Shown piece after piece: positions 3,185 through 18,153 of a DNA stretch of 64,000 nucleotides. The DNA is taken from assembly GCA_045647355.1 (NCBI GenBank), contig JAZRMF010000001.1:81714-145713 (forward strand), in the 5' to 3' direction. The position numbers and the translations under genes are program-made. Every line of letters starts with the position of its first letter. Position 1 is the stretch's first letter. This stretch comes from Candidatus Enterousia sp. GTDB lineage: Bacteria; Pseudomonadota; Alphaproteobacteria; Rs-D84. The notes beneath the pieces are model-generated. The model ran no database searches. It had not been told where the DNA came from and was given only the letters and a program-made list of their open reading frames with translations.

Positions 3185-3213
3185 ATAAAAACCGGCACAT
3201 GCCGGTTTTTATT
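3184..3213. terminator. Bidirectional terminator between convergent genes
   Basis: AATAAAAACCGGC-ACAT-GCCGGTTTTTATT. Confidence 0.85.
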
Positions 3214-3856
3214 TTTTATAATCACAATATTTTGCCAATGGGCAATTTTCACACTTTGGACGAAGGGCGGTGCATGTGTACCGTCCAAACAGGACCATTA
3301 CGTGATTTACAATTGAATGATACTCTTTCGGAATTTTCTTTAATAATTCTGTTTCAACTTTTTCCGGTGTATTCACACCATCATTAACCCACCCATACCT
3401 GTGTGCCAGACGGAATACATGTGTATCAACACCGATATTTGGCGCGTCCCATAAAACATTCATTATTACATTTGCGGTTTTCTGACCAATTCCCGGTAAT
3501 TTCATCAGGGTATCGCGATTATGGTATTTCTGTGGAAAGACCCAATTATCGTCATCAGTTTTAATATCCGCCAATTGTTCGGACAATGCTATGATATTTT
3601 TGGCCTTGTTATTAAAGAACGATATAACGCGTATATGTTTCTTTAAACCATCCAATCCCAATTCCAACATCTTTTGTGGTGTCGGTGCCACGCGAAATAG
3701 GGCGGGTGTAACTTCGTTCACCTTTTTATCGGTTGCCTGAGCCGAAAGTATTACCGCAACCGCAAATGTAAAATCATTTACAGAATATAACTCTGACCGA
3801 ATATTCATATTAAGATTATTCGGTACAACACCAAAGAAACGCGCAGGTGTTATCAT
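3209..3856 (-). CDS. nth: Endonuclease III
   Basis: VILSAQATD, HhH LPGIGQKTANV, VDTHVFR and C-terminal CX6CX2CX5C 4Fe-4S motif. Confidence 0.96.
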   Translation of the reverse strand: MITPARFFGVVPNNLNMNIRSELYSVNDFTFAVAVILSAQATDKKVNEVTPALFRVAPTPQKMLELGLDGLKKHIRVISFFNNKAKNIIALSEQLADIKTDDDNWVFPQKYHNRDTLMKLPGIGQKTANVIMNVLWDAPNIGVDTHVFRLAHRYGWVNDGVNTPEKVETELLKKIPKEYHSIVNHVMVLFGRYTCTALRPKCENCPLAKYCDYKK

Positions 3857-3859
3857 ATT

Positions 3860-4387
3860 CTAATTCTGCGCACAGATTGCCCCACATTTTGAATTGCAAT
3901 CCAATTCAACCTTTTTGGGTTCGGTGGTATACTGATAACGTACGGTTCTTTCGACAATTAAACCGTCCAAATCACATGTACATGTGATTGTATTTTGCGC
4001 GCTGTATTGCGCAGTTTTTTCACCATTTACAATACTGGTGTTGCGTGACGAAGAAAAACTGGACCCGCAACCAATAAATTTCCCTTTGGTGTCACCATCT
4101 GTCTTTTTGGCAGTTTCGTTTTTTTCAGCGGTTGTCACAGATACAGTTTGTTTGCTATCTTTGTTAACTTCTGTTTTTTGCGAAACCTTTTGTTCTGTGA
4201 CAGATTTTTCATCTGCCTTTACATCATTTTTTTCTGCACCTTTGTCAGAAAATGATTGTTCGGTAACGGTGATATTATCTGCCGCCCTTGGGATAGTTCC
4301 CCAAGGGTTAGCAAACAACATCCAGAATTTACAGAAAACAACCAAACATACCACACATACCAAAATAAATTTATCTTCTTTTTTCAT
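3860..4387 (-). CDS. Hypothetical membrane-anchored protein with Cys-rich C-terminus
   Basis: N-terminal hydrophobic segment, low-complexity K/E/T linker, several C-terminal Cys; tightly coupled to ileS and nth. Confidence 0.75.
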   Translation of the reverse strand: MKKEDKFILVCVVCLVVFCKFWMLFANPWGTIPRAADNITVTEQSFSDKGAEKNDVKADEKSVTEQKVSQKTEVNKDSKQTVSVTTAEKNETAKKTDGDTKGKFIGCGSSFSSSRNTSIVNGEKTAQYSAQNTITCTCDLDGLIVERTVRYQYTTEPKKVELDCNSKCGAICAQN

Positions 4388-4389
4388 TT

Positions 4390-7300
4390 TTATGCCTTTT
4401 GTATTGATATTCCAAAGTTATACCCTTCGATGTCTTTAAAGTATTCGGCATCACCGGGTGCCATTTCACGGATTAACGCATCCGCCATAATACGTTTACG
4501 ATGCTGTTCGATTGCACCAGACAGTGCCAAATCCGCCGTATAGGTAAGATTTATTCTGTCGGATACATCCAAACCAATTTCTTTACGTGTGTCTTGGATA
4601 AATCGCAACGCATCGTTCGCCAAACCTTCGGCAATCAATTCTGAATTAAGTTCCGTATCCAAAATCACAACCGCCGTATTATCGGGCAGGGCGATTCCAG
4701 TTACACCATCTTTGATAGTTAAACGGTTTTCAAATTCATCTGCATTCAATGTGTATGAACCGACAACCAATTTATCACCATCCAATTCATAATCGCCACG
4801 TTTTACGGCCGGTATGATTTCACGTAATGCACCACCCAGGCGGCTACCGATTTTTGGTGTGACCAAGTATATGAAACTGTCTGCGACTTTATTCGCGCTG
4901 TCCACCCATTCAACAGATTTCACATTTAATTCATCACGAATTATATTTGTGTAATCTGGCATTGCGTGTCCACCCGCAACCGTCAATTTGGCAAGTGGCA
5001 AACGATTACGCAATTTGTATTGTTCGCGCAACTGTTTACCTGCGGACACTATTGCCTGAACCCGGCGCATATCGGTCACAATATTCATATCCACAGAATC
5101 TGCGACAGGCCAATCTTCCAAATGCACGGATTCTTTGCCTGTTAAATTCTTGTAGATATATTCCGATATAAACGGTGCGAACGGTGCCATTATCTTGGCC
5201 AGATTTACCAACACATAATATAACGTATTAAATGCGGTATTATCTTCATCCCAGAAGCGGTCACGATTACGACGGATATACCAGTTATTCAATATATCCA
5301 AGAATCTAATAAATTCTTTGATTGCTATATCAGGTTTATACTGGTTCAAAGAATCCGTTGTGATTTTCATCAATCGGCTTAATTCAGCCATGATGTATTT
5401 ATCCAACAGATTCGTAGATGTATTGTTCATCTCGGCTGTGATATTCCCTGCATTGGCGTACAATGTAAAGAAGTGATACGCATTCCAAAGCGGTGTCAAA
5501 ATCGTTTTGATTGTATCGCCAAATACTTTACCTTCTTTATCCACACCAACTGTTTCCGCCTTCATAAATGTGCTGCCTTGGATGAATAAACGTATTGCAT
5601 CCGCACTGTATGTTTCTAATTGTTCAGACGGTTCAACATAGTTGTGTAATGATTTCGAGAATTTTCTTTTTTGTTCGTCACAAATCAGACCATTGGCCGA
5701 CACAACACGGAACGCAGGTTTATCAAACAGCGCAACCGCCATAACCATCAACCCATAGAACCATCCACGTGTTTGTTCGTCCGCTTCGATAATGTAATCA
5801 GCCGGAAATGTCTTTTCAAACACATCTTTGTTTTCAAATGGGTAATGCAGGTGTGCAAACGGCATAGAACCACTTTCAAACCAACAATCCAAAACATCGG
5901 GTATACGTTTCCATCCGTCTTTTTCCAATTTATCCAATGTTGGGCGATGCAAATCGTCTATCTTGGTGCCAAAGAATTCTTCCATTTCGGCGATAGAACC
6001 GAATACCTTGTATTCGCCGTTTCTTTCCCAAATTGGTAAAGGAACACCCCAATATCTGTTTCTGGTTATACCCCATTCACGTGCGTTCTCAATCCATGAC
6101 AAGAATCGATTACCTGCAGACGTCCATGTTGTTTGGGTCTTGGTTATTTCAACCAACCTGTCACGGATTTTTGGCACATCAACATACCATGCATCGGTCG
6201 CACGATAGATAAGTTTTTCTTTACTACGTGGGCCATATGGGTAACTGTGCTTGTGCTGGTCCTTTTTAACCAGTATGCCATTACTGCGCAACCAGTCTAT
6301 TATTTTTGGATTTGCATCAAAAATATTCATACCCGGCCAATCTTTTACTGTTGAATCAAAATTACCAAAGTCATCAACATTTAATATGACTGGGAATTTT
6401 GGATCAATTGCTTTGGCCGCCCAATAATCATCTTCACCATATGCCGGGGCAATATGAACGATACCCGTACCATCACCATCCGAAACATAATCCGCAGGAA
6501 TTATCGTATACAGGCCATGTCCTTCTTTGGCCAAATCTGTATAGTATGGGAATATCGGTGTATAGTGCAAACCAACCAATTCGGCACCCGTACATTCGCC
6601 AACCTTTTCCGATGTCGCAAATATCTTTTCATACGCAGACACCCTTGATTCTGCCAAGATATATACATGGCCATCATCGTGGCGCATTTTTACATACTTC
6701 ATCTTTGGGTTTACGGCCAATGCAGAATTCGCCGGCAATGTCCATGGTGTTGTCGTCCATGCAATTGCACGTTCACCATTTTCCAATTCAAACCAGACGG
6801 TCACCGTATCATCGACAACATCCTTGTATTCTGATGAAGCCTCGGAATTAGAAAGGACGGTTCCCAATTTCCAATCATACGGATTAACTTTGAAATCTTT
6901 ATACAACAAACCTTTGTCATATAACTGTTTCAATCCCCATATTACAGATTCCATATAATTTTTATCCATGGTGCGATAACCATAATTGTCACCACCATCA
7001 ACCCAACGGCCAACGCGTTCAACAAATCGCAACCATCCGTTGCAGTATGTTGTCACACTGGTTCTGCATAAATCGCAGAACACATCTATGCCGTCTTGTT
7101 CAACAATTTTCTTGGCGGTGCGGCCTTCTTGTTGTTCAACGGCTGTTTCTGCCGGTAACCCATGGCAATCCCAACCAAGTTCGCGTTTTACATATCTTCC
7201 GCACATGGTTTTATAACGGGAAACCATATCTTTTATACACGAAACCCCCAAGTGTCCCCAATGCGGTAAACCATTGGCAAACGGTGGACCATCATAGAAA

Positions 7301-7428
7301 TTAAATGGTTCACCCATTTTTGTCTTTTCTAGTGATTTATGAAACGTATCATCTTGCCGCCAAAAGTCCAACACTTCATGTTCCAATTCAGAAAAGTTTA
7401 CTTTCGGTTCTGTTTTTTTATATGCCAT
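4390..7428 (-). CDS. ileS: Isoleucine--tRNA ligase (IleRS type 2-like)
   Basis: FYDGPPFANGLPHWGH, GWDCHGLP, WTTTPWTLP, GDGTGIVHIAP and KFSKS; type-2-like C-terminus without zinc finger; start at MAYKK after GGAG. Confidence 0.97.
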   Translation of the reverse strand: MAYKKTEPKVNFSELEHEVLDFWRQDDTFHKSLEKTKMGEPFNFYDGPPFANGLPHWGHLGVSCIKDMVSRYKTMCGRYVKRELGWDCHGLPAETAVEQQEGRTAKKIVEQDGIDVFCDLCRTSVTTYCNGWLRFVERVGRWVDGGDNYGYRTMDKNYMESVIWGLKQLYDKGLLYKDFKVNPYDWKLGTVLSNSEASSEYKDVVDDTVTVWFELENGERAIAWTTTPWTLPANSALAVNPKMKYVKMRHDDGHVYILAESRVSAYEKIFATSEKVGECTGAELVGLHYTPIFPYYTDLAKEGHGLYTIIPADYVSDGDGTGIVHIAPAYGEDDYWAAKAIDPKFPVILNVDDFGNFDSTVKDWPGMNIFDANPKIIDWLRSNGILVKKDQHKHSYPYGPRSKEKLIYRATDAWYVDVPKIRDRLVEITKTQTTWTSAGNRFLSWIENAREWGITRNRYWGVPLPIWERNGEYKVFGSIAEMEEFFGTKIDDLHRPTLDKLEKDGWKRIPDVLDCWFESGSMPFAHLHYPFENKDVFEKTFPADYIIEADEQTRGWFYGLMVMAVALFDKPAFRVVSANGLICDEQKRKFSKSLHNYVEPSEQLETYSADAIRLFIQGSTFMKAETVGVDKEGKVFGDTIKTILTPLWNAYHFFTLYANAGNITAEMNNTSTNLLDKYIMAELSRLMKITTDSLNQYKPDIAIKEFIRFLDILNNWYIRRNRDRFWDEDNTAFNTLYYVLVNLAKIMAPFAPFISEYIYKNLTGKESVHLEDWPVADSVDMNIVTDMRRVQAIVSAGKQLREQYKLRNRLPLAKLTVAGGHAMPDYTNIIRDELNVKSVEWVDSANKVADSFIYLVTPKIGSRLGGALREIIPAVKRGDYELDGDKLVVGSYTLNADEFENRLTIKDGVTGIALPDNTAVVILDTELNSELIAEGLANDALRFIQDTRKEIGLDVSDRINLTYTADLALSGAIEQHRKRIMADALIREMAPGDAEYFKDIEGYNFGISIQKA

Positions 7429-7456
7429 TTTTATGTACTCCATATGCTGTTATTAT

Positions 7457-7480
7457 AAAAAAACGGGCGCCTATGCGCCC
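7457..7480 (-). terminator. Attenuator terminator upstream of ileS
   Basis: Minus strand GGGCGC-ATAG-GCGCCC-G-TTTTTTT between the leader ORF and the ileS SD. Confidence 0.8.
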
Positions 7481-7507
7481 CAGCCAACGCCAAAGCGCAG
7501 CACTGGT

Positions 7508-7540
7508 TTACCTTATAATAATTATTTCTTTTGTTTTCAT
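7508..7540 (-). CDS. Putative ileS leader peptide MKTKEIIIIR
   Basis: ATG AAA ACA AAA GAA ATA ATT ATT ATA AGG TAA: four tandem Ile codons directly upstream of the terminator and ileS. Confidence 0.75.
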   Translation of the reverse strand: MKTKEIIIIR

Positions 7541-7548
7541 CGCAGGTT

Positions 7549-7577
7549 AGTGTAATATATTAAAATTGGAATTTCCA
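7549..7577 (-). promoter_or_regulatory. Putative promoter for the ileS leader (near-leaderless)
   Basis: TGGAAA-17 nt-TACACT ending 8 nt before the leader ATG. Confidence 0.5.
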
Positions 7578-7604
7578 GTATTTTATGCAAAAAATACAAG
7601 TTGC

Positions 7605-7632
7605 TTGACAAGTTTACTTTTTGTGCTATATT
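7605..7632 (+). promoter_or_regulatory. Sigma70-like promoter
   Basis: TTGACA-16 nt-TATATT with extended -10 TG. Confidence 0.65.
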
Positions 7633-7664
7633 TTGAGTACAAGAAGTTTATTGAGGAGACGAAC

Positions 7665-8273
7665 ATGATAAAAGACGAAAAGTTAAAAAGAAGACTGTAT
7701 ATGTTGTTGTGTGATATTGCGAAACTGGGTGACAAGACAGCGGCATTTTTTATTGCGGTATTTAAGGCACCAAACGATGTTCAAGAAGACATGACAGACC
7801 CTGAAAAATTCAAGGAATCTGTATTCAACAGATATAGAATTAATTATAAACGCTATATCCTGGAACAGAATCAACACCGCCTGCAAAAACTTGTTGGTGG
7901 AAAAGTAGAGCGCGTCACAAAAAGTGCGGATTCTGATATGTTGCAAGAGATTGCCGATAAAGGCCTGACAGATGTTATCTTGTCAGAAAACAGCCCTTTC
8001 CGTATTTCCGATGTTAGCTATTTCGAAGCAACCGAACATCAATTGCCATTACCTATGGTATGTAAATATGGTGATTATAGAATCAAATTTGCATCTGCGG
8101 GTATGGGATGGTGCGGCAGCACACAGCGCGAAAACGGATTCATATCCAAGCGCAACGCAAAAGGTCATTATGAACCTGTTGCCACAATTTCACCGGAATT
8201 ATCCGACTATTTGGCAAAAATTGTCGATGAAAAGGCGAAGATGCAAAAGGCCGAAAAGGAACAAGCACGTTAA
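7665..8273 (+). CDS. Hypothetical protein
   Basis: ORF with GAGGAG SD before MIKDEK; promoter upstream and terminator downstream. Confidence 0.8.
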   Translation: MIKDEKLKRRLYMLLCDIAKLGDKTAAFFIAVFKAPNDVQEDMTDPEKFKESVFNRYRINYKRYILEQNQHRLQKLVGGKVERVTKSADSDMLQEIADKGLTDVILSENSPFRISDVSYFEATEHQLPLPMVCKYGDYRIKFASAGMGWCGSTQRENGFISKRNAKGHYEPVATISPELSDYLAKIVDEKAKMQKAEKEQAR

Positions 8274-8321: not shown

Positions 8322-8397
8322 TGGTGCCGGTGATAGGACTTGAACCTACGACCCCCTCATTACGAATGAGATGCTCTACCAGCTGAGCTACACCGGC
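8322..8397 (-). tRNA. tRNA-Thr(CGT)
   Basis: GCCGGTGTAGCTCAGCTGGTAGAGC...TTCGTAA loop...GGTTCAAGTCC...ACCA cloverleaf with encoded CCA. Confidence 0.95.
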
Positions 8398-8443: not shown

Positions 8444-8890
8444 TTATTTGCCGTTATACGGGGTCAATTGTGACATAAAAAATCTATTTAAATCGCTAAG
8501 GCGTTCCATGTTATAATCTTGGGGCATTTCAGAATCCCATTGTTCTTTTGCAGCAATTGATTCAAAAATCTGCATATTCCTTTGATTTTTGCGGTCTGTG
8601 ATTGCCCTGGCCTTTATACTTGTATATGAATTCACCAAAAACGAATTTTTTTCGGGATATCGCGAATCATATCTATGATTGTCTGTAACCAAAGTCCACT
8701 TGTCTGGATTGTGAACCGTGATTTGTTCAGACGTTGGAACAGATTTAATGAACGTATATCTTAACACCCATTGATTACAATAATATCGTGTTATCATGGC
8801 AAGGTCGTTATCTGGTGTTATACCATATTCAAACTCTACGTTCACTTTGTATTGGTTCATTGCCATATTAAATTCGTCAACCCACGTCAT
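8444..8890 (-). CDS. Hypothetical protein (148 aa)
   Basis: ATGA overlap with the mnmG stop, consistent with translational coupling. Confidence 0.75.
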   Translation of the reverse strand: MTWVDEFNMAMNQYKVNVEFEYGITPDNDLAMITRYYCNQWVLRYTFIKSVPTSEQITVHNPDKWTLVTDNHRYDSRYPEKNSFLVNSYTSIKARAITDRKNQRNMQIFESIAAKEQWDSEMPQDYNMERLSDLNRFFMSQLTPYNGK

Positions 8891-10545
8891 TGTTTATCCT
8901 TTCCTTGATTTATTTTCCGCAACACAACCATTATCCCCGCCGGGGTCATTCCCGGTATTCTTTGCAATTCTGCAAGTGTCGTTGGACGCGCACGATTTAA
9001 TTTTTCACACAATTCCCGTGTCAGCCCCGAAAGACCACTATAATCAAAATCCGCCGGTATTTTTATTGTTCTGTCGCGGCGGTATGATTCTATTTCCCGT
9101 TCATTTCGCATAATATATCCGGCATAAAATCTGTCGTTTTCGGCAATTTTACCGGCTTTTTCGTGCATTTTTTTCAAAAAGGCACTTTCAGATATCAAAC
9201 CCAAATCAACCCCAATTGGCCCCATACGTGATATTGCATTATCCGCACGCAGGTTTAAACGATATTCCGAACGCGAAGTAAACATACGATATGGTTCATC
9301 AACCCCAAGTGTTGTTATATCATCTATCATAACACCTATCATTGAATTGGTTCTATCGATTTCCAACCCGGGCAATGAAAGAGCAAATGCGGCGGCGTTT
9401 GCGCCGGCAACAATTCCCTGGGCGGCGGCTTCTTCGTATCCAGACGTACCGTTTATTTGTCCTGCAAAGAATAACCCGGGGGCATCGCGTGACATTAAAT
9501 GTGAATCCAGCACGCGTGCATCAATCGCATCATATTCAATTGCGTATCCATACCGGGCAATCCGCGCATTTTGCAGCCCCGGAATAGTGCGAATCCACCT
9601 GTCTTGGATATCGCGGCCAAAACTGGTTGAAATACCATTTGGGTAAATTAAATCACTGTGTAATCCTTCGGGTTCTAAAAACACATGATGCGACAGGTGT
9701 TCTGGGAACCGCATTACTTTATCTTCCAAAGACGGGCAATAACGTGGCCCAATTCCCGAAATATCACCATTATACATTGGCGCATTTTTAATATTATCAC
9801 GAATTATTTTGTGAGTTTCTTCGTTGGTGTGTGTGATAAAACAGACCGCAACATTATTGTCTGTATCACACCCATCAGAAAACCAATCATGTGGGTTATC
9901 GGGGCGTTGTTCTTCACACACAGAAAAATCAATAGAATCACGATAAATACGTGCTGGTGTCCCAGTTTTAAGGCGAATTATATCAAATCCAAAATCGCGC
10001 AATGCACCAGAAATTACCGTATCGGGCGATTGATACGTACCGTCGTCCATGATTCGCCCTGATGGTGTTTTTTCCGCACCCATTGTGACCAAACCACCCA
10101 AAAATGTTCCAGTTGTAAAAACAATAGACTTTGCCATGTATGCGTTATTTATTACTTTATTCGCCAAATCAACAGATTCGACCGTTTCAAATAACACGGT
10201 CAAGTTTTCGTATTCGGCCAAAATTTTGATAATCGCATTATGATATAATTCACGGTCAATTTGTGCGCGCAACGCTTGGGTCGCCGGTCCATGTGATGCA
10301 TTCAATGTTCTAAAATGTATTCCGGCCATATCGGCACCGCGTGGCATTACACTACCAAGTGCATCTATTTCCGCAACCATTTGCGATTTTCCCGGCCCGC
10401 CAATAGAAGGATTGCACGACATCGCACCTAAATCTGATTCGCGCATTGTTAACAGTAATGTCGTGGCACCACGACGCGCAGATGCCGCGGCTGCCTCGAC
10501 ACCCGCATGTCCACCACCAATAACAATTACATCAAACCTTTGCAT
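8887..10545 (-). CDS. mnmG: tRNA uridine-5-carboxymethylaminomethyl(34) synthesis enzyme MnmG
   Basis: VIGGGHAGVEAA, MSCNPSIGG, RLKTGTPAR, GPRYCPSLEDK and AGQINGTSGYEEAAAQG. Confidence 0.97.
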   Translation of the reverse strand: MQRFDVIVIGGGHAGVEAAAASARRGATTLLLTMRESDLGAMSCNPSIGGPGKSQMVAEIDALGSVMPRGADMAGIHFRTLNASHGPATQALRAQIDRELYHNAIIKILAEYENLTVLFETVESVDLANKVINNAYMAKSIVFTTGTFLGGLVTMGAEKTPSGRIMDDGTYQSPDTVISGALRDFGFDIIRLKTGTPARIYRDSIDFSVCEEQRPDNPHDWFSDGCDTDNNVAVCFITHTNEETHKIIRDNIKNAPMYNGDISGIGPRYCPSLEDKVMRFPEHLSHHVFLEPEGLHSDLIYPNGISTSFGRDIQDRWIRTIPGLQNARIARYGYAIEYDAIDARVLDSHLMSRDAPGLFFAGQINGTSGYEEAAAQGIVAGANAAAFALSLPGLEIDRTNSMIGVMIDDITTLGVDEPYRMFTSRSEYRLNLRADNAISRMGPIGVDLGLISESAFLKKMHEKAGKIAENDRFYAGYIMRNEREIESYRRDRTIKIPADFDYSGLSGLTRELCEKLNRARPTTLAELQRIPGMTPAGIMVVLRKINQGKDKQ

Positions 10546-16297: not shown

Positions 16298-17917
16298 TTA
16301 TTCTTCTGGTAATTCAATACGTGTGAACAGGTTTTCTGGGACAGTAAATTTTTCACCGTTTGCAATTCTGTGTTCGTACATTGTTGGCCAAGATAAATCA
16401 TGGTTGCCATCAAATATACCGCGAATCTTGTCCGCCGCATCCGGTATAAATGGTGCAGATATACGCGCGAACAAATCAATTAATTGAAAACACTCGTTCA
16501 ACACCGCCGCCGCGGTTGCCGTATCACCATTTTTAACCAATGCCCATGGTTCTTTTTCGGTCATATATTCATTTGCGATACCGTAAATATCGCGCAGGGC
16601 TATAATAGATTTACGGAATTCACATGCGTCCAATGCACCCGTTAATTCCGCTAATTTTTCATTTACACGATGCGCCAATGTTTCATCCATCGTGGCACCG
16701 GTCGGAACCGTGTCACCAAAGTTTTTCTGTGACAGTTTGCATACACGTGACACAAAATTGCCCAACAATCCGTTCAAATCTTTATTAACAATTTCGGCAA
16801 AACGCGTCATTGTAAAGTCTGTATCATCTGTTTCCGGTGCAGATGCAAGCAGGGCATAACGCCAGCAATCAGATGGTGCAATATTTAATGCCTCGTCTAA
16901 AAATATTCCGTTACCGGTTGATTTGGAAATCTTGGCACCATTAAAGTTCAAGAAATTTTGACCCTTTAATACATCAACTGTTTTCCAATTGTCATCCATT
17001 GCCAATTCGTAGGCTGGGAAAAACACAGAATGGAAAGATACATTATCCTTGGCCATGAATTGTGTATAGTGGCAATCTGGGTTTTTCCACCAGGACGCCC
17101 AATCTGGATTTGCAATTTGCGAAATAGAAACATATCCCCATGGTGCATCAAACCACACATAGAAAACTTTGTCTTCGTAACCCGGTTTGTTTACCGGAAT
17201 ACCCCATTTCAAATCACGCGTAATTGGATTATCATGCAATCCTTCGTCCAACCATTTATTTGCAATTTTAATTGCGGTTTTTGGCCAACCAACACGCGAA
17301 TTTATCCATGCGCGCAGTTTATCTTGCATTTTACTTAATTTGAAATACAGATGTTTTGTTTCGCGCATTTCAACCGGGGATGATGGGTCAATAGAACTGT
17401 GTGGATTTATCAATTCATCTGGATCCAGTGACGCACCGCATTTTTCACATTCGTTTCCGTATGCTTTTTCATACCCACACTTTGGACATGTGCCAATAAC
17501 ATAACGGTCGGCCAAGAATTTCTTTTCATTTACAGAATAGGGCTGTTTAGAGGCTTTTTCTTCTATCATGCCCAATGAATCTAAACGATTAAACAATTCA
17601 TGAATCAGTTTTTCATGTTGGGGGGTATGTGTGCGCCCGTATAAATCAAAAGACAATTTGAAATCACGCACCGCGTCCAGGTGTTTTGCACGATATTTAT
17701 CAACATAATCTTCCACCGACATATTCTCGCGTGCCGCGCCGATTTCGGATGTTGTTCCATGTTCATCAGACCCGCCAATATACAAAACATCACGACCCAT
17801 TGCACGACAGAAACGGGCGTATACATCAGACGGCAATAAACAGCCAATTAAATGCCCAATATGCAAATTATTATTTACGTATGGTAATGCCGAAGTAATA
17901 AGATATTTTTTGCTCAT
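16298..17917 (-). CDS. metG: Methionine--tRNA ligase (short form without C-terminal tRNA-binding domain)
   Basis: ITSALPYVN..HIGH, SDEHG, CPKC/CEKC knuckles, YVWFDAP and KISKS. Confidence 0.97.
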   Translation of the reverse strand: MSKKYLITSALPYVNNNLHIGHLIGCLLPSDVYARFCRAMGRDVLYIGGSDEHGTTSEIGAARENMSVEDYVDKYRAKHLDAVRDFKLSFDLYGRTHTPQHEKLIHELFNRLDSLGMIEEKASKQPYSVNEKKFLADRYVIGTCPKCGYEKAYGNECEKCGASLDPDELINPHSSIDPSSPVEMRETKHLYFKLSKMQDKLRAWINSRVGWPKTAIKIANKWLDEGLHDNPITRDLKWGIPVNKPGYEDKVFYVWFDAPWGYVSISQIANPDWASWWKNPDCHYTQFMAKDNVSFHSVFFPAYELAMDDNWKTVDVLKGQNFLNFNGAKISKSTGNGIFLDEALNIAPSDCWRYALLASAPETDDTDFTMTRFAEIVNKDLNGLLGNFVSRVCKLSQKNFGDTVPTGATMDETLAHRVNEKLAELTGALDACEFRKSIIALRDIYGIANEYMTEKEPWALVKNGDTATAAAVLNECFQLIDLFARISAPFIPDAADKIRGIFDGNHDLSWPTMYEHRIANGEKFTVPENLFTRIELPEE

Positions 17918-17935
17918 TTACCCATCCTTTTTATG

Positions 17936-17962
17936 AAAAAGGGACGCCAAACGGGGCGTCCC
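17936..17962 (-). terminator. Attenuator terminator upstream of metG
   Basis: Minus strand GGGACGCC-CCGTTT-GGCGTCCC-TTTTT (8-bp stem), about 20 nt before the metG start. Confidence 0.85.
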
Positions 17963-17992
17963 AAAGAATCCCGTTCAAACTTGTTCTAAAAA

Positions 17993-18010
17993 TTAGTTTT
18001 GCATTCGCAT
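17993..18010 (-). CDS. Putative metG leader peptide MRMQN
   Basis: ATG CGA ATG CAA AAC TAA preceded by AGAGGA; two Met codons; followed by antiterminator/terminator sequences. Confidence 0.55.
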   Translation of the reverse strand: MRMQN

Positions 18011-18036
18011 TTTTTATCTTTTGTCCTCTGAAAATC

Positions 18037-18113
18037 TGGTGGGTGATATTGGACTCGAACCAACGACCTTTACGATGTCAACGTAACGCTCTAACCAACT
18101 GAGCTAATCACCC
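18037..18113 (-). tRNA. tRNA-Val(GAC)
   Basis: GGGTGATTAGCTCAGTTGGTTAGAGCG...TTGACAT loop...GGTTCGAGTCC...ACCA. Confidence 0.96.
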
Positions 18114-18125
18114 AAGGCAGTCGCC

Positions 18126-18153
18126 ATTATAACAAAGAATTTGGCGATTGCAA
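18126..18153 (-). promoter_or_regulatory. Promoter for tRNA-Val (and probably metG)
   Basis: TTGCAA-16 nt-TATAAT with extended -10 TG. Confidence 0.7.

Follow-up and report, generated by a model that had tools for sequence, protein, structure and literature searches.

Introduction

How does a host-associated alphaproteobacterium match the expression of ileS, the gene for isoleucyl-tRNA synthetase (IleRS), to its supply of charged isoleucine tRNA? To our knowledge, the Proteobacteria are without T-boxes, and the feedback control of most of their aminoacyl-tRNA synthetase genes is poorly known. The question is raised by the region directly upstream of ileS in the DNA described here, a 64-kb stretch (hereafter the window, meaning the whole of the DNA analysed) from a 'Candidatus Enterousia'-like alphaproteobacterium of the gut or rumen, and not from a Gram-positive organism, which corrects an earlier note on this DNA. 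Read along the minus strand, the locus consists of a putative promoter, a 10-codon open reading frame (ORF), a region able to form either of two hairpins (H1 and H2), an intrinsic terminator (H3), and the Shine-Dalgarno (SD) sequence and ATG of ileS (Table 1). Every coordinate in the earlier note proved correct. The leader measures about 84 nucleotides (nt) from its AUG to the end of the U-tract and about 110 nt in all.

The earlier note had recognised in this arrangement the layout of classical ribosome-mediated attenuation, and the fixed-length isoleucine ORF, the terminator, the antiterminator and the conserved geometry described below support that view. The parts of the element, their conservation, their mutually exclusive pairings and their geometry are observations of this analysis. 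Together with folding models they make it probable that the element is a ribosome-mediated (leader-peptide) transcription attenuator, through which ileS transcription would follow the availability of Ile-tRNA(Ile).

Conservation of the leader

Relatives were collected by scanning GTDB species representatives with the IleRS protein, which yielded 80 loci at 70-94% identity. All of these come from uncultured gut, rumen or faecal Alphaproteobacteria, many of them named Candidatus Enterousia, and one relative genome is circular at 958,618 bp (OZ007020.1), i.e. genomes of about 1 Mb occur in the group. One locus (L032) is cut inside ileS and was left out, and a complete leader was found in 77 of the 79 informative loci, the exceptions being L048, which is cut inside the leader, and L044, which is without one. 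Counts given below refer to 78 leaders, namely that of the window and those of the 77 loci carrying the complete element. A search for protein homologues gave only close relatives (at least 76% identity) and no outgroups; the proteins it returned bear the name isoleucine--tRNA ligase and contain PF00133/PF08264.

A pattern scan of metagenome DNA returned 120 matching stretches, of which 73 are full leaders (sampled from the rumen, the human and termite gut and elsewhere) and the other 47 are mostly chance matches, with a few leaders cut by contig ends (L114, L184). Sixty-nine of the 73 lie directly 5' of ileS, with N-terminal IleRS identity to the window falling as low as 58-61%; at least two (L148, L180) precede an ORF of about 190 amino acids, the remainder are on contigs too short to tell, and none of the 73 was found ahead of an unrelated gene. 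With nhmmer, one leader copy was found per locus and no second copy elsewhere in the window. Judged from these comparisons, the element is specific to ileS and strongly conserved. The signals from a single sequence are modest (leader fold z -2.2, antiterminator z -1.9, one terminator against 0.3 expected by chance), and the element is considered non-random because it is conserved across about 150 independent loci, not from the window sequence alone.

The leader ORF agrees base for base with the reading MKTKEIIIIR* given by the earlier note, including its run of isoleucine codons (ATA ATT ATT ATA). It is exactly 10 codons long in 72 of the 78 leaders and starts with ATG, rarely with GTG. Exactly five codons stand ahead of the isoleucine run in 73 leaders, the run consists of exactly four consecutive codons in 76 (one lineage has three and one has five), and a single codon separates it from the stop in 77 (Lys in 54, Arg in 17). 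Codons 2-5 differ freely among leaders (encoding K, N, T, Q, D, S and others); the run, the three- and five-isoleucine lineages apart, changes only at third positions. Alignment of the upstream regions thus points to an ORF that is under coding constraint, its isoleucine run recurring in the relatives and in the 73 metagenome leaders alike. Runs of four isoleucine codons are otherwise frequent in this DNA, the window having 12 where shuffles have 5.8 +/- 3.3.

Codon choice within the run is also retained. Among its 312 codons, ATA accounts for 98, ATT for 203 and ATC for 11; position 1 is ATA in 71 of 76 leaders and positions 2-3 are ATT in 73 of 76. AUA and AUU are read by different tRNAs, AUU by wobble. 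The near-absence of AUC would be expected of codons deliberately sensitive to starvation, by analogy with what is established for the E. coli leu leader. ATA was described as rare by the earlier note; it makes up 34% of the isoleucine codons in 33 long ORFs of the window and is thus common in this genome.

Promoter and terminator

The promoter proposed earlier, TGGAAA-17-TACACT on the minus strand, is present, and 8 nt (AACCTGCG) separate the end of its -10 element from the leader ATG. With 8 of 12 consensus positions matched, it falls under the threshold of the promoter scan, but the motif and its distance to the ATG are conserved. A CTGGAAAT...TA(C/A)ACT motif 7-8 nt from the ATG recurs in L001-L003, L011, L016, L027, L045, L049, L056 and L066; most other loci have TTGATT-17-TATAAA, its -10 element ending exactly 7 nt 5' of the ATG, and this 7-nt spacing is found in 20 loci among those with promoter matches of at least 9/12. 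It is this conservation in relatives, and not its scan score, that supports the putative promoter of the window. The base just 5' of the leader ATG is usually C, giving a pyrimidine-purine (YR) start site. On these grounds the leader mRNA is probably leaderless, with transcription starting at or within a base of the AUG. About 20 relatives differ in that a tRNA-Thr(CGU) gene ends 10-25 nt before the leader ATG with no promoter in between; in these, leader RNA would arise when transcription runs on from the tRNA gene and the transcript is processed.

The terminator reported by the earlier note, GGGCGC-ATAG-GCGCCC followed by a T-run, is precisely the one site found by the terminator scan. Each of the 78 leaders has a comparable hairpin (-6 to -15 kcal/mol) followed by 5-9 T residues; its pairs form in 95.6% of alignment cells, with compensatory CG->UA changes at two pairs. 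The distance from the T-run to the ileS ATG is 23-45 nt across the leader family, including the SD sequence, and the promoter scan found no promoter-like site on the minus strand within 7300-7800. There is thus no room for an ileS promoter after the terminator, and the terminator must be read through for an essential gene to be expressed.

A terminator ahead of a gene may also simply be leaky. It could be constitutive and serve to insulate ileS from transcription arriving from tRNA-Thr or from the divergent promoter, the micro-ORF having an unrelated role or none. The presence of tRNA-Thr immediately upstream in about 20 relatives fits such a function, since a terminator after a tRNA gene is ordinary, and the window holds a further array of tRNA-Val, terminator and metG without an obvious antiterminator. 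However, a simple insulator would leave ileS without a promoter of its own past the terminator, the majority of loci carry a promoter of their own for the leader, 7 nt from its ATG, and about 150 loci have kept both the isoleucine-codon ORF and the antiterminator pairing. This explanation is considered highly improbable, and attenuation is preferred.

Alternative RNA structures

The pairing of TGCGC (7499-7495) with GCGCA (7478-7474), noticed by the earlier note, was confirmed. In the antiterminator hairpin H2, GCGCUUUGGC pairs with GCUGGGGCGC and thereby uses up the whole 5' arm of the terminator, so that H2 and H3 are mutually exclusive. H2 is the minimum free energy (MFE) structure of the leader, reaches -16.7 kcal/mol before the 3' arm of the terminator has been transcribed, and is the RNAalifold consensus even when that arm is included. 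Its pairing is retained in 97.2% of alignment cells over 76 distinct sequences and in 98.2% over 126 sequences, as against 32-55% in a slid control in which the partner was moved by 1-3 columns. Wobble pairs have changed to Watson-Crick pairs (UG->CG 14 times, GU->GC 9 times). In L067 and L071, a GC->AU change in H2 has placed a new U in the shared strand, which is matched by a G->A change in the 3' arm of the terminator; on the aligned sequences this is a three-way covariation of H2 and H3.

Two further pairings were set aside. An extended antiterminator, in which GUGCU (7503-7499) pairs with the 3' arm of the terminator, is possible in the window but was found in only 8 of the 78 leaders and was rejected as a family feature, and a long A-U helix between the isoleucine codons and the U-tract, seen in the full-length MFE structure, was treated as an effect of composition.

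The 5' hairpin H1 (CAGTGCTGCGC-TTTG-GCGTTGGCTG, 7505-7481) is compatible with the terminator and excludes the antiterminator. Its MFE is -8.6 kcal/mol in the window (z -1.8 against shuffles), the family median is -10.6 kcal/mol, and a hairpin forms in every sequence. The earlier note had listed it as a competing local hairpin; it is present and would correspond to the 1:2 hairpin of classical attenuators, but in a fixed register no more than 76-78% of cells are paired, and no significant covariation is seen. Its registers appear from the alignment to differ between sublineages, and by this comparison it is the least conserved part of the element. The search for covarying stems has therefore a mixed outcome, with compensatory changes in H2 and H3 that are shallow, and none that is significant in H1.

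The conservation of this region allows another explanation, namely that the GC-rich RNA is itself the sensor and is bound by a protein (IleRS autoregulation, comparable to that of ThrRS on thrS) or by a tRNA, the ORF being incidental or a means of loading ribosomes. Positions 7505-7475 are indeed conserved beyond the needs of base pairing, the loops UUUG and GGUG/GUUG are nearly fixed, and covariation is sparse. Strong sequence conservation is nevertheless to be expected of bases that each take part in two or three alternative pairings. Furthermore, the ORF retains its length, its start, four isoleucine codons with synonymous changes only and a single pre-stop codon even at IleRS identities of 58-70%, and it is not regarded as incidental because an incidental ORF would not keep such constraints. 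No T-box or other Rfam family was matched even at E<=10, and a leader of about 84 nt is too short for a T-box. A sensor RNA of this kind is accordingly very unlikely.

Ribosome position and the choice of structure

The effect of a ribosome was mimicked in all 78 leaders by masking the RNA up to successive positions, followed by equilibrium folding. The leading edge was set 12 nt past the first base of the A-site codon, an offset established by toeprinting and footprinting, and the results were scored by core-pair probabilities (P) and by a free-energy difference (ddG), which is negative where the terminator is favoured. A stricter score, demanding either the complete set of six terminator pairs or a 5' arm with no base paired, proved misleading and was replaced.

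In unmasked RNA the terminator core has a median P of 0.97. With the mask edge at +5 to +11 from the stop codon, the terminator is disfavoured (median P 0.17 at first free base +11; in the window, 0.05 at +6/7 and 0.14-0.17 at +11/12), and from +13 its P is back to 0.94-1.0. The earlier note had placed a ribosome at the stop codon over the TGCGC region. This stands in so far as the 5' core of H2 starts 11-13 nt past the first base of the stop codon in 66 of the 78 leaders, but only the first 0-2 bases of the core are reached. Family medians of ddG are -2.1 kcal/mol without a ribosome, -2.3, -2.3, -2.1 and -0.8 with the ribosome on the first to fourth isoleucine codon, +0.5 on codon 10, -1.8 on the stop codon and -3.6 three nucleotides beyond it. 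In these models the masking profile has three states, as in a classical attenuator, with termination in the absence of a ribosome, read-through when the ribosome stands just short of the stop, and termination when it stands at the stop.

Before the 3' arm of the terminator exists, H2 is more stable than H1 by a median of 5.4 kcal/mol, and in stepwise folding at this pre-terminator stage H2 is the MFE structure whichever position the ribosome takes, the stop alone excepted. On this model, ribosomes that stall earlier in the run could therefore plausibly give read-through by a kinetic route.

The same profile can be read with the logic inverted, such that full translation melts H1 and allows the antiterminator to form, whereas an early stall leaves H1 and the terminator in place and ileS expression falls in isoleucine shortage. 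At equilibrium, the terminator is favoured just as in ribosome-free RNA while the ribosome is on any of the first three isoleucine codons (median ddG about -2.1 to -2.3 kcal/mol), and antitermination is seen only with the edge at +5 to +11, i.e. with the A site on the fourth isoleucine codon or codon 10. At the stop, a ribosome masks no more than the first core bases of H2; a reach of less than 12 nt from the A site would put the stop codon inside the antitermination window. Against such a circuit, less IleRS when Ile-tRNA is short would be destabilising feedback, and every characterised amino-acid leader known to us (trp, his, leu, thr, ilv, pheST) raises expression on shortage. It would also rely on the least conserved helix, H1. 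The H2 core is sharply kept at +11 to +13 from the stop, as expected if a terminating ribosome must touch it, and the P of the terminator jumps to 0.94-1.0 with the mask at +12/13. Inverted control is judged very unlikely, and the conventional direction, in which shortage raises ileS transcription, is retained in what follows.

Proposed mechanism

In the attenuation scheme, transcription would begin on the leader AUG or no more than one base away or, in some relatives, arrive by read-through from the adjacent tRNA-Thr gene. A ribosome would then translate the 10-codon ORF while RNA polymerase makes the next approximately 50 nt. With ample charged tRNA-Ile, the ribosome would advance to the stop codon (7510-7508) and its leading edge, some 12 nt further on, would touch GCGC (7498-7495); the antiterminator would be weakened, GGGCGC/GCGCCC with its U7 tract would form, and transcription would end at about 7457-7463, ahead of ileS. 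When charged tRNA-Ile is scarce, the ribosome would stall on the AUA/AUU codons (7525-7514), leaving GCGCUUUGGC free to pair with the emerging GCUGGGGCGC, and with the 5' arm of the terminator thus sequestered the polymerase would read into ileS. H1 (7505-7481) may hold the 5' strand of the antiterminator and so, like the trp 1:2 hairpin, cause an untranslated leader to terminate; the base of H1 would be opened by a ribosome on codon 10 or the last isoleucine codon. The stall positions that would give read-through, and the physiological response, are predictions of this scheme.

Several observations weigh against it. The balance between structures is a fine one, with ddG ranging only from -3.6 to +0.5 kcal/mol over the ribosome positions, and because antitermination is favoured at equilibrium only with the ribosome on the fourth isoleucine codon or codon 10, and not on the first three, the outcome of an early stall depends on folding kinetics. 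The reach of the ribosome at the stop into the H2 core is tighter than in trp. In single sequences, H2 is about 1.6-1.9 standard deviations more stable than with shuffles of its upstream strand (z -1.9 in the window). The covariation is thin, with double-sided changes at two pairs per helix that probably stem from one or two events, and the primary sequence is near-invariant. In L044, a metagenome-assembled genome (MAG) from horse faeces with an IleRS 73% identical, both leader and terminator are gone (2403-2503), and about 23 nt separate the end of a tRNA-Glu(CTC) gene from the ileS ATG. The leader ORF is without an SD sequence, a lack that a leaderless start would explain. Finally, the transcription start, the translation of the ORF and the 3' ends at the hairpin are inferred.

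Neighbouring genes and a similar array before metG

Between tRNA-Thr and the leader, both in the window and in L001, lies a 202-amino-acid ORF (7665-8273, plus strand) without a Pfam match. This divergent ORF is served by a strong plus-strand promoter, TTGACA-16-TATATT (7605-7632). Just 3' of ileS is a 175-amino-acid ORF (3860-4387, minus strand), also without a Pfam match, followed by a gene for endonuclease III (HhH-GPD; 3209-3856, minus strand); in other bacteria, lspA often occupies the position right after ileS. The window further carries mnmG/gidA at 8887-10545 and a stretch of lower GC content (0.31-0.35 as against about 0.40) across about 28-44 kb. GC skew is negative over about 4-24 kb and positive over about 24-60 kb, with a cumulative minimum near 20-24 kb that could mark a replication origin.

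The ORF of about 190 amino acids mentioned above (MQIIIRDAVPEDAPDIARIHADGWEYAYRGIF...) follows the attenuator in L148, L180 and L184 and looks acetyltransferase-like by eye. In L184 (oriented extract 70-642; IleRS about 67% identical) its stop overlaps the ileS start, so that the attenuator would, from this arrangement, control a two-gene operon; the start of the leader ORF is cut off there by the contig end. In L148 (IleRS about 60% identical) a gap of about 590 nt separates the ORF from ileS, and the L180 contig ends before ileS.

A second succession of tRNA gene, tiny ORF, terminator and synthetase gene occupies 17917-18153 of the window on the minus strand, ahead of metG. As metG has no room for a promoter of its own, its terminator must be read through as well. 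The array was not accepted as a second attenuator, as no convincing antiterminator or alternative structure was found in it (fold z -0.43).

Table 1. Positions of the ileS leader, its parts and neighbouring features in the window
Feature	Positions	Strand	Details
Putative leader promoter	7549..7577	minus	-35 TGGAAA 7577-7572; 17-nt spacer; -10 TACACT 7554-7549
Leader ORF MKTKEIIIIR*	7508..7540	minus	ATG AAA ACA AAA GAA ATA ATT ATT ATA AGG TAA; ATG 7540-7538; Ile codons 7525-7514; AGG 7513-7511; TAA 7510-7508
H1, 5' hairpin (putative trp 1:2 analogue)	7481..7505	minus	arms CAGU-G-C-U-GCGC 7505-7495 and GCGU-U-G-GCUG 7490-7481
H2, antiterminator	7475..7498	minus	GCGCUUUGGC 7498-7489 pairs with GCUGGGGCGC 7484-7475; loop GUUG
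H3, intrinsic terminator	7457..7480	minus	GGGCGC 7480-7475, ATAG, GCGCCC 7470-7465, G, T7 7463-7457; from terminator scan
ileS (type 2 IleRS, 1012 aa, class I synthetase) with SD	4390..7440	minus	SD GGAG 7440-7437; ATG 7428; stop 4392-4390; from translation
tRNA-Thr(CGU)	8322..8397	minus	syntenic upstream neighbour of the leader
metG-array promoter, then tRNA-Val(GAC)	18113-18037	minus	promoter TTGCAA-17-TATAAT
Tiny ORF of metG array (MRMQN*)	~18009-17992	minus	ATG CGA ATG CAA AAC TAA
Terminator of metG array	17962-17941	minus	GGGACGCC-CCGTTT-GGCGTCCC + T5
metG	16298-17917	minus	Pfam tRNA-synt_1g, E 6e-139; starts 23 nt past the terminator

Comparison with known systems

A T-box riboswitch is, in Gram-positives, the best-known means of controlling ileS by tRNA charging. 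T-boxes bind uncharged tRNA directly and have a Stem I with a specifier codon, a T-box sequence in the bulge of the antiterminator and a length of 200-300 nt. At the gathering threshold, cmscan found only four tRNAs in the window and no amino-acid leader family (Thr, Leu, His, Trp); within 7300-7800 no T-box or relevant Rfam family appeared even at E<=10, the only hits being spurious sub-threshold matches to S15 and ODC_IRES. With no such match and a leader of only about 110 nt, a T-box was ruled out. T-boxes upstream of ileS are found in Firmicutes, with translational variants in Actinobacteria (PMC1262725). They share with the present element the regulated gene and the tRNA-Ile charging signal, and many are likewise terminator/antiterminator switches, but they bind the tRNA directly, whereas charging would here be read through the translating ribosome.

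Control by leader-peptide attenuation is classical for the trp, his, leu, thr and ilv operons and, for a synthetase operon, for E. coli pheST. The novelty claimed by the earlier note was therefore too strong, the more so as an 'ileS leader CDS' (coding sequence) has already been named in Caulobacter (PMC4117421). In the searchable literature, no isoleucine leader peptide or attenuator was found described for ileS beyond that label, although a 2010 survey of synthetase attenuation (Lopatovskaya et al., Mol Biol 44:128) may list ileS. Most likely, then, the element is a well-known type of switch on a gene for which such a switch has not been described, notable for its compactness and its probable leaderless start.

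A fuller reading can be offered only tentatively. The leader could be the first defined isoleucine-codon leader-peptide attenuator of a synthetase gene, near-minimal in form (a leaderless 10-codon ORF, about 84 nt) and fixed across a clade of gut Alphaproteobacteria with reduced genomes. An order of AUA first, then AUU, with almost no AUC, kept despite saturated synonymous divergence, might allow it to sample both tRNA-Ile isoacceptors, the lysidine-dependent reader of AUA and the wobble-reading GAU tRNA, by means of 'hungry' codons, and in some members it might be fed by an upstream tRNA transcript.

For this uncultured, host-associated clade, the comparisons suggest that ileS is under leader-peptide control by a cis-regulatory family that is absent from Rfam and easily modelled. 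The compactness and probable leaderless start would make it a handy natural system for the study of transcription-translation coupling in attenuator decisions. IleRS is the target of mupirocin, and the element predicts a transcriptional response to IleRS inhibition. The 10-codon ORF and the attenuator merit annotation in these MAGs.

Among synthetase operons, E. coli pheST with its pheM leader peptide is similar in having a run of cognate codons, alternative hairpins and an intrinsic terminator. It differs in sensing Phe, in having a 14-codon leader with a conventional 5' untranslated region and SD sequence and in being gammaproteobacterial, and there is no sequence similarity. Within the Alphaproteobacteria, ribosome profiling of Caulobacter crescentus revealed a small translated 'ileS leader CDS', CCNA_03934 (Schrader et al. 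2014, PMC4117421), for which the paper and its supplement give no sequence, codon content or mechanism. Compared by label and position only, it too is a small translated CDS upstream of an alphaproteobacterial ileS, but that ileS has 2,910 nt (about 969 amino acids) as against the 1012-residue enzyme here. In mycobacteria, leaderless polycysteine short ORFs are stated to attenuate downstream operonic expression in the title of a report (10.1101/834739). Going by that title, they share with the present leader a short ORF starting at a 5' AUG, a codon run for a single amino acid and amino-acid-responsive attenuation; they differ in being actinobacterial and in concerning Cys and Cys-metabolism genes, and a terminator/antiterminator layout is not part of what the title states.

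Structural parallels are also found in the trpL, ilvL, ivbL and thrL leaders of the Enterobacteria, in which the position of the ribosome likewise selects among three mutually exclusive hairpins (1:2, 2:3 and 3:4), as in the three-state masking profile seen here; ilvL and thrL also count isoleucine codons. These leaders target biosynthetic operons, whereas the present one precedes a synthetase gene in genomes of about 1 Mb. It is also much smaller, its 1:2 hairpin is poorly conserved, and its regulatory codons lie upstream of segment 1 and not inside it.

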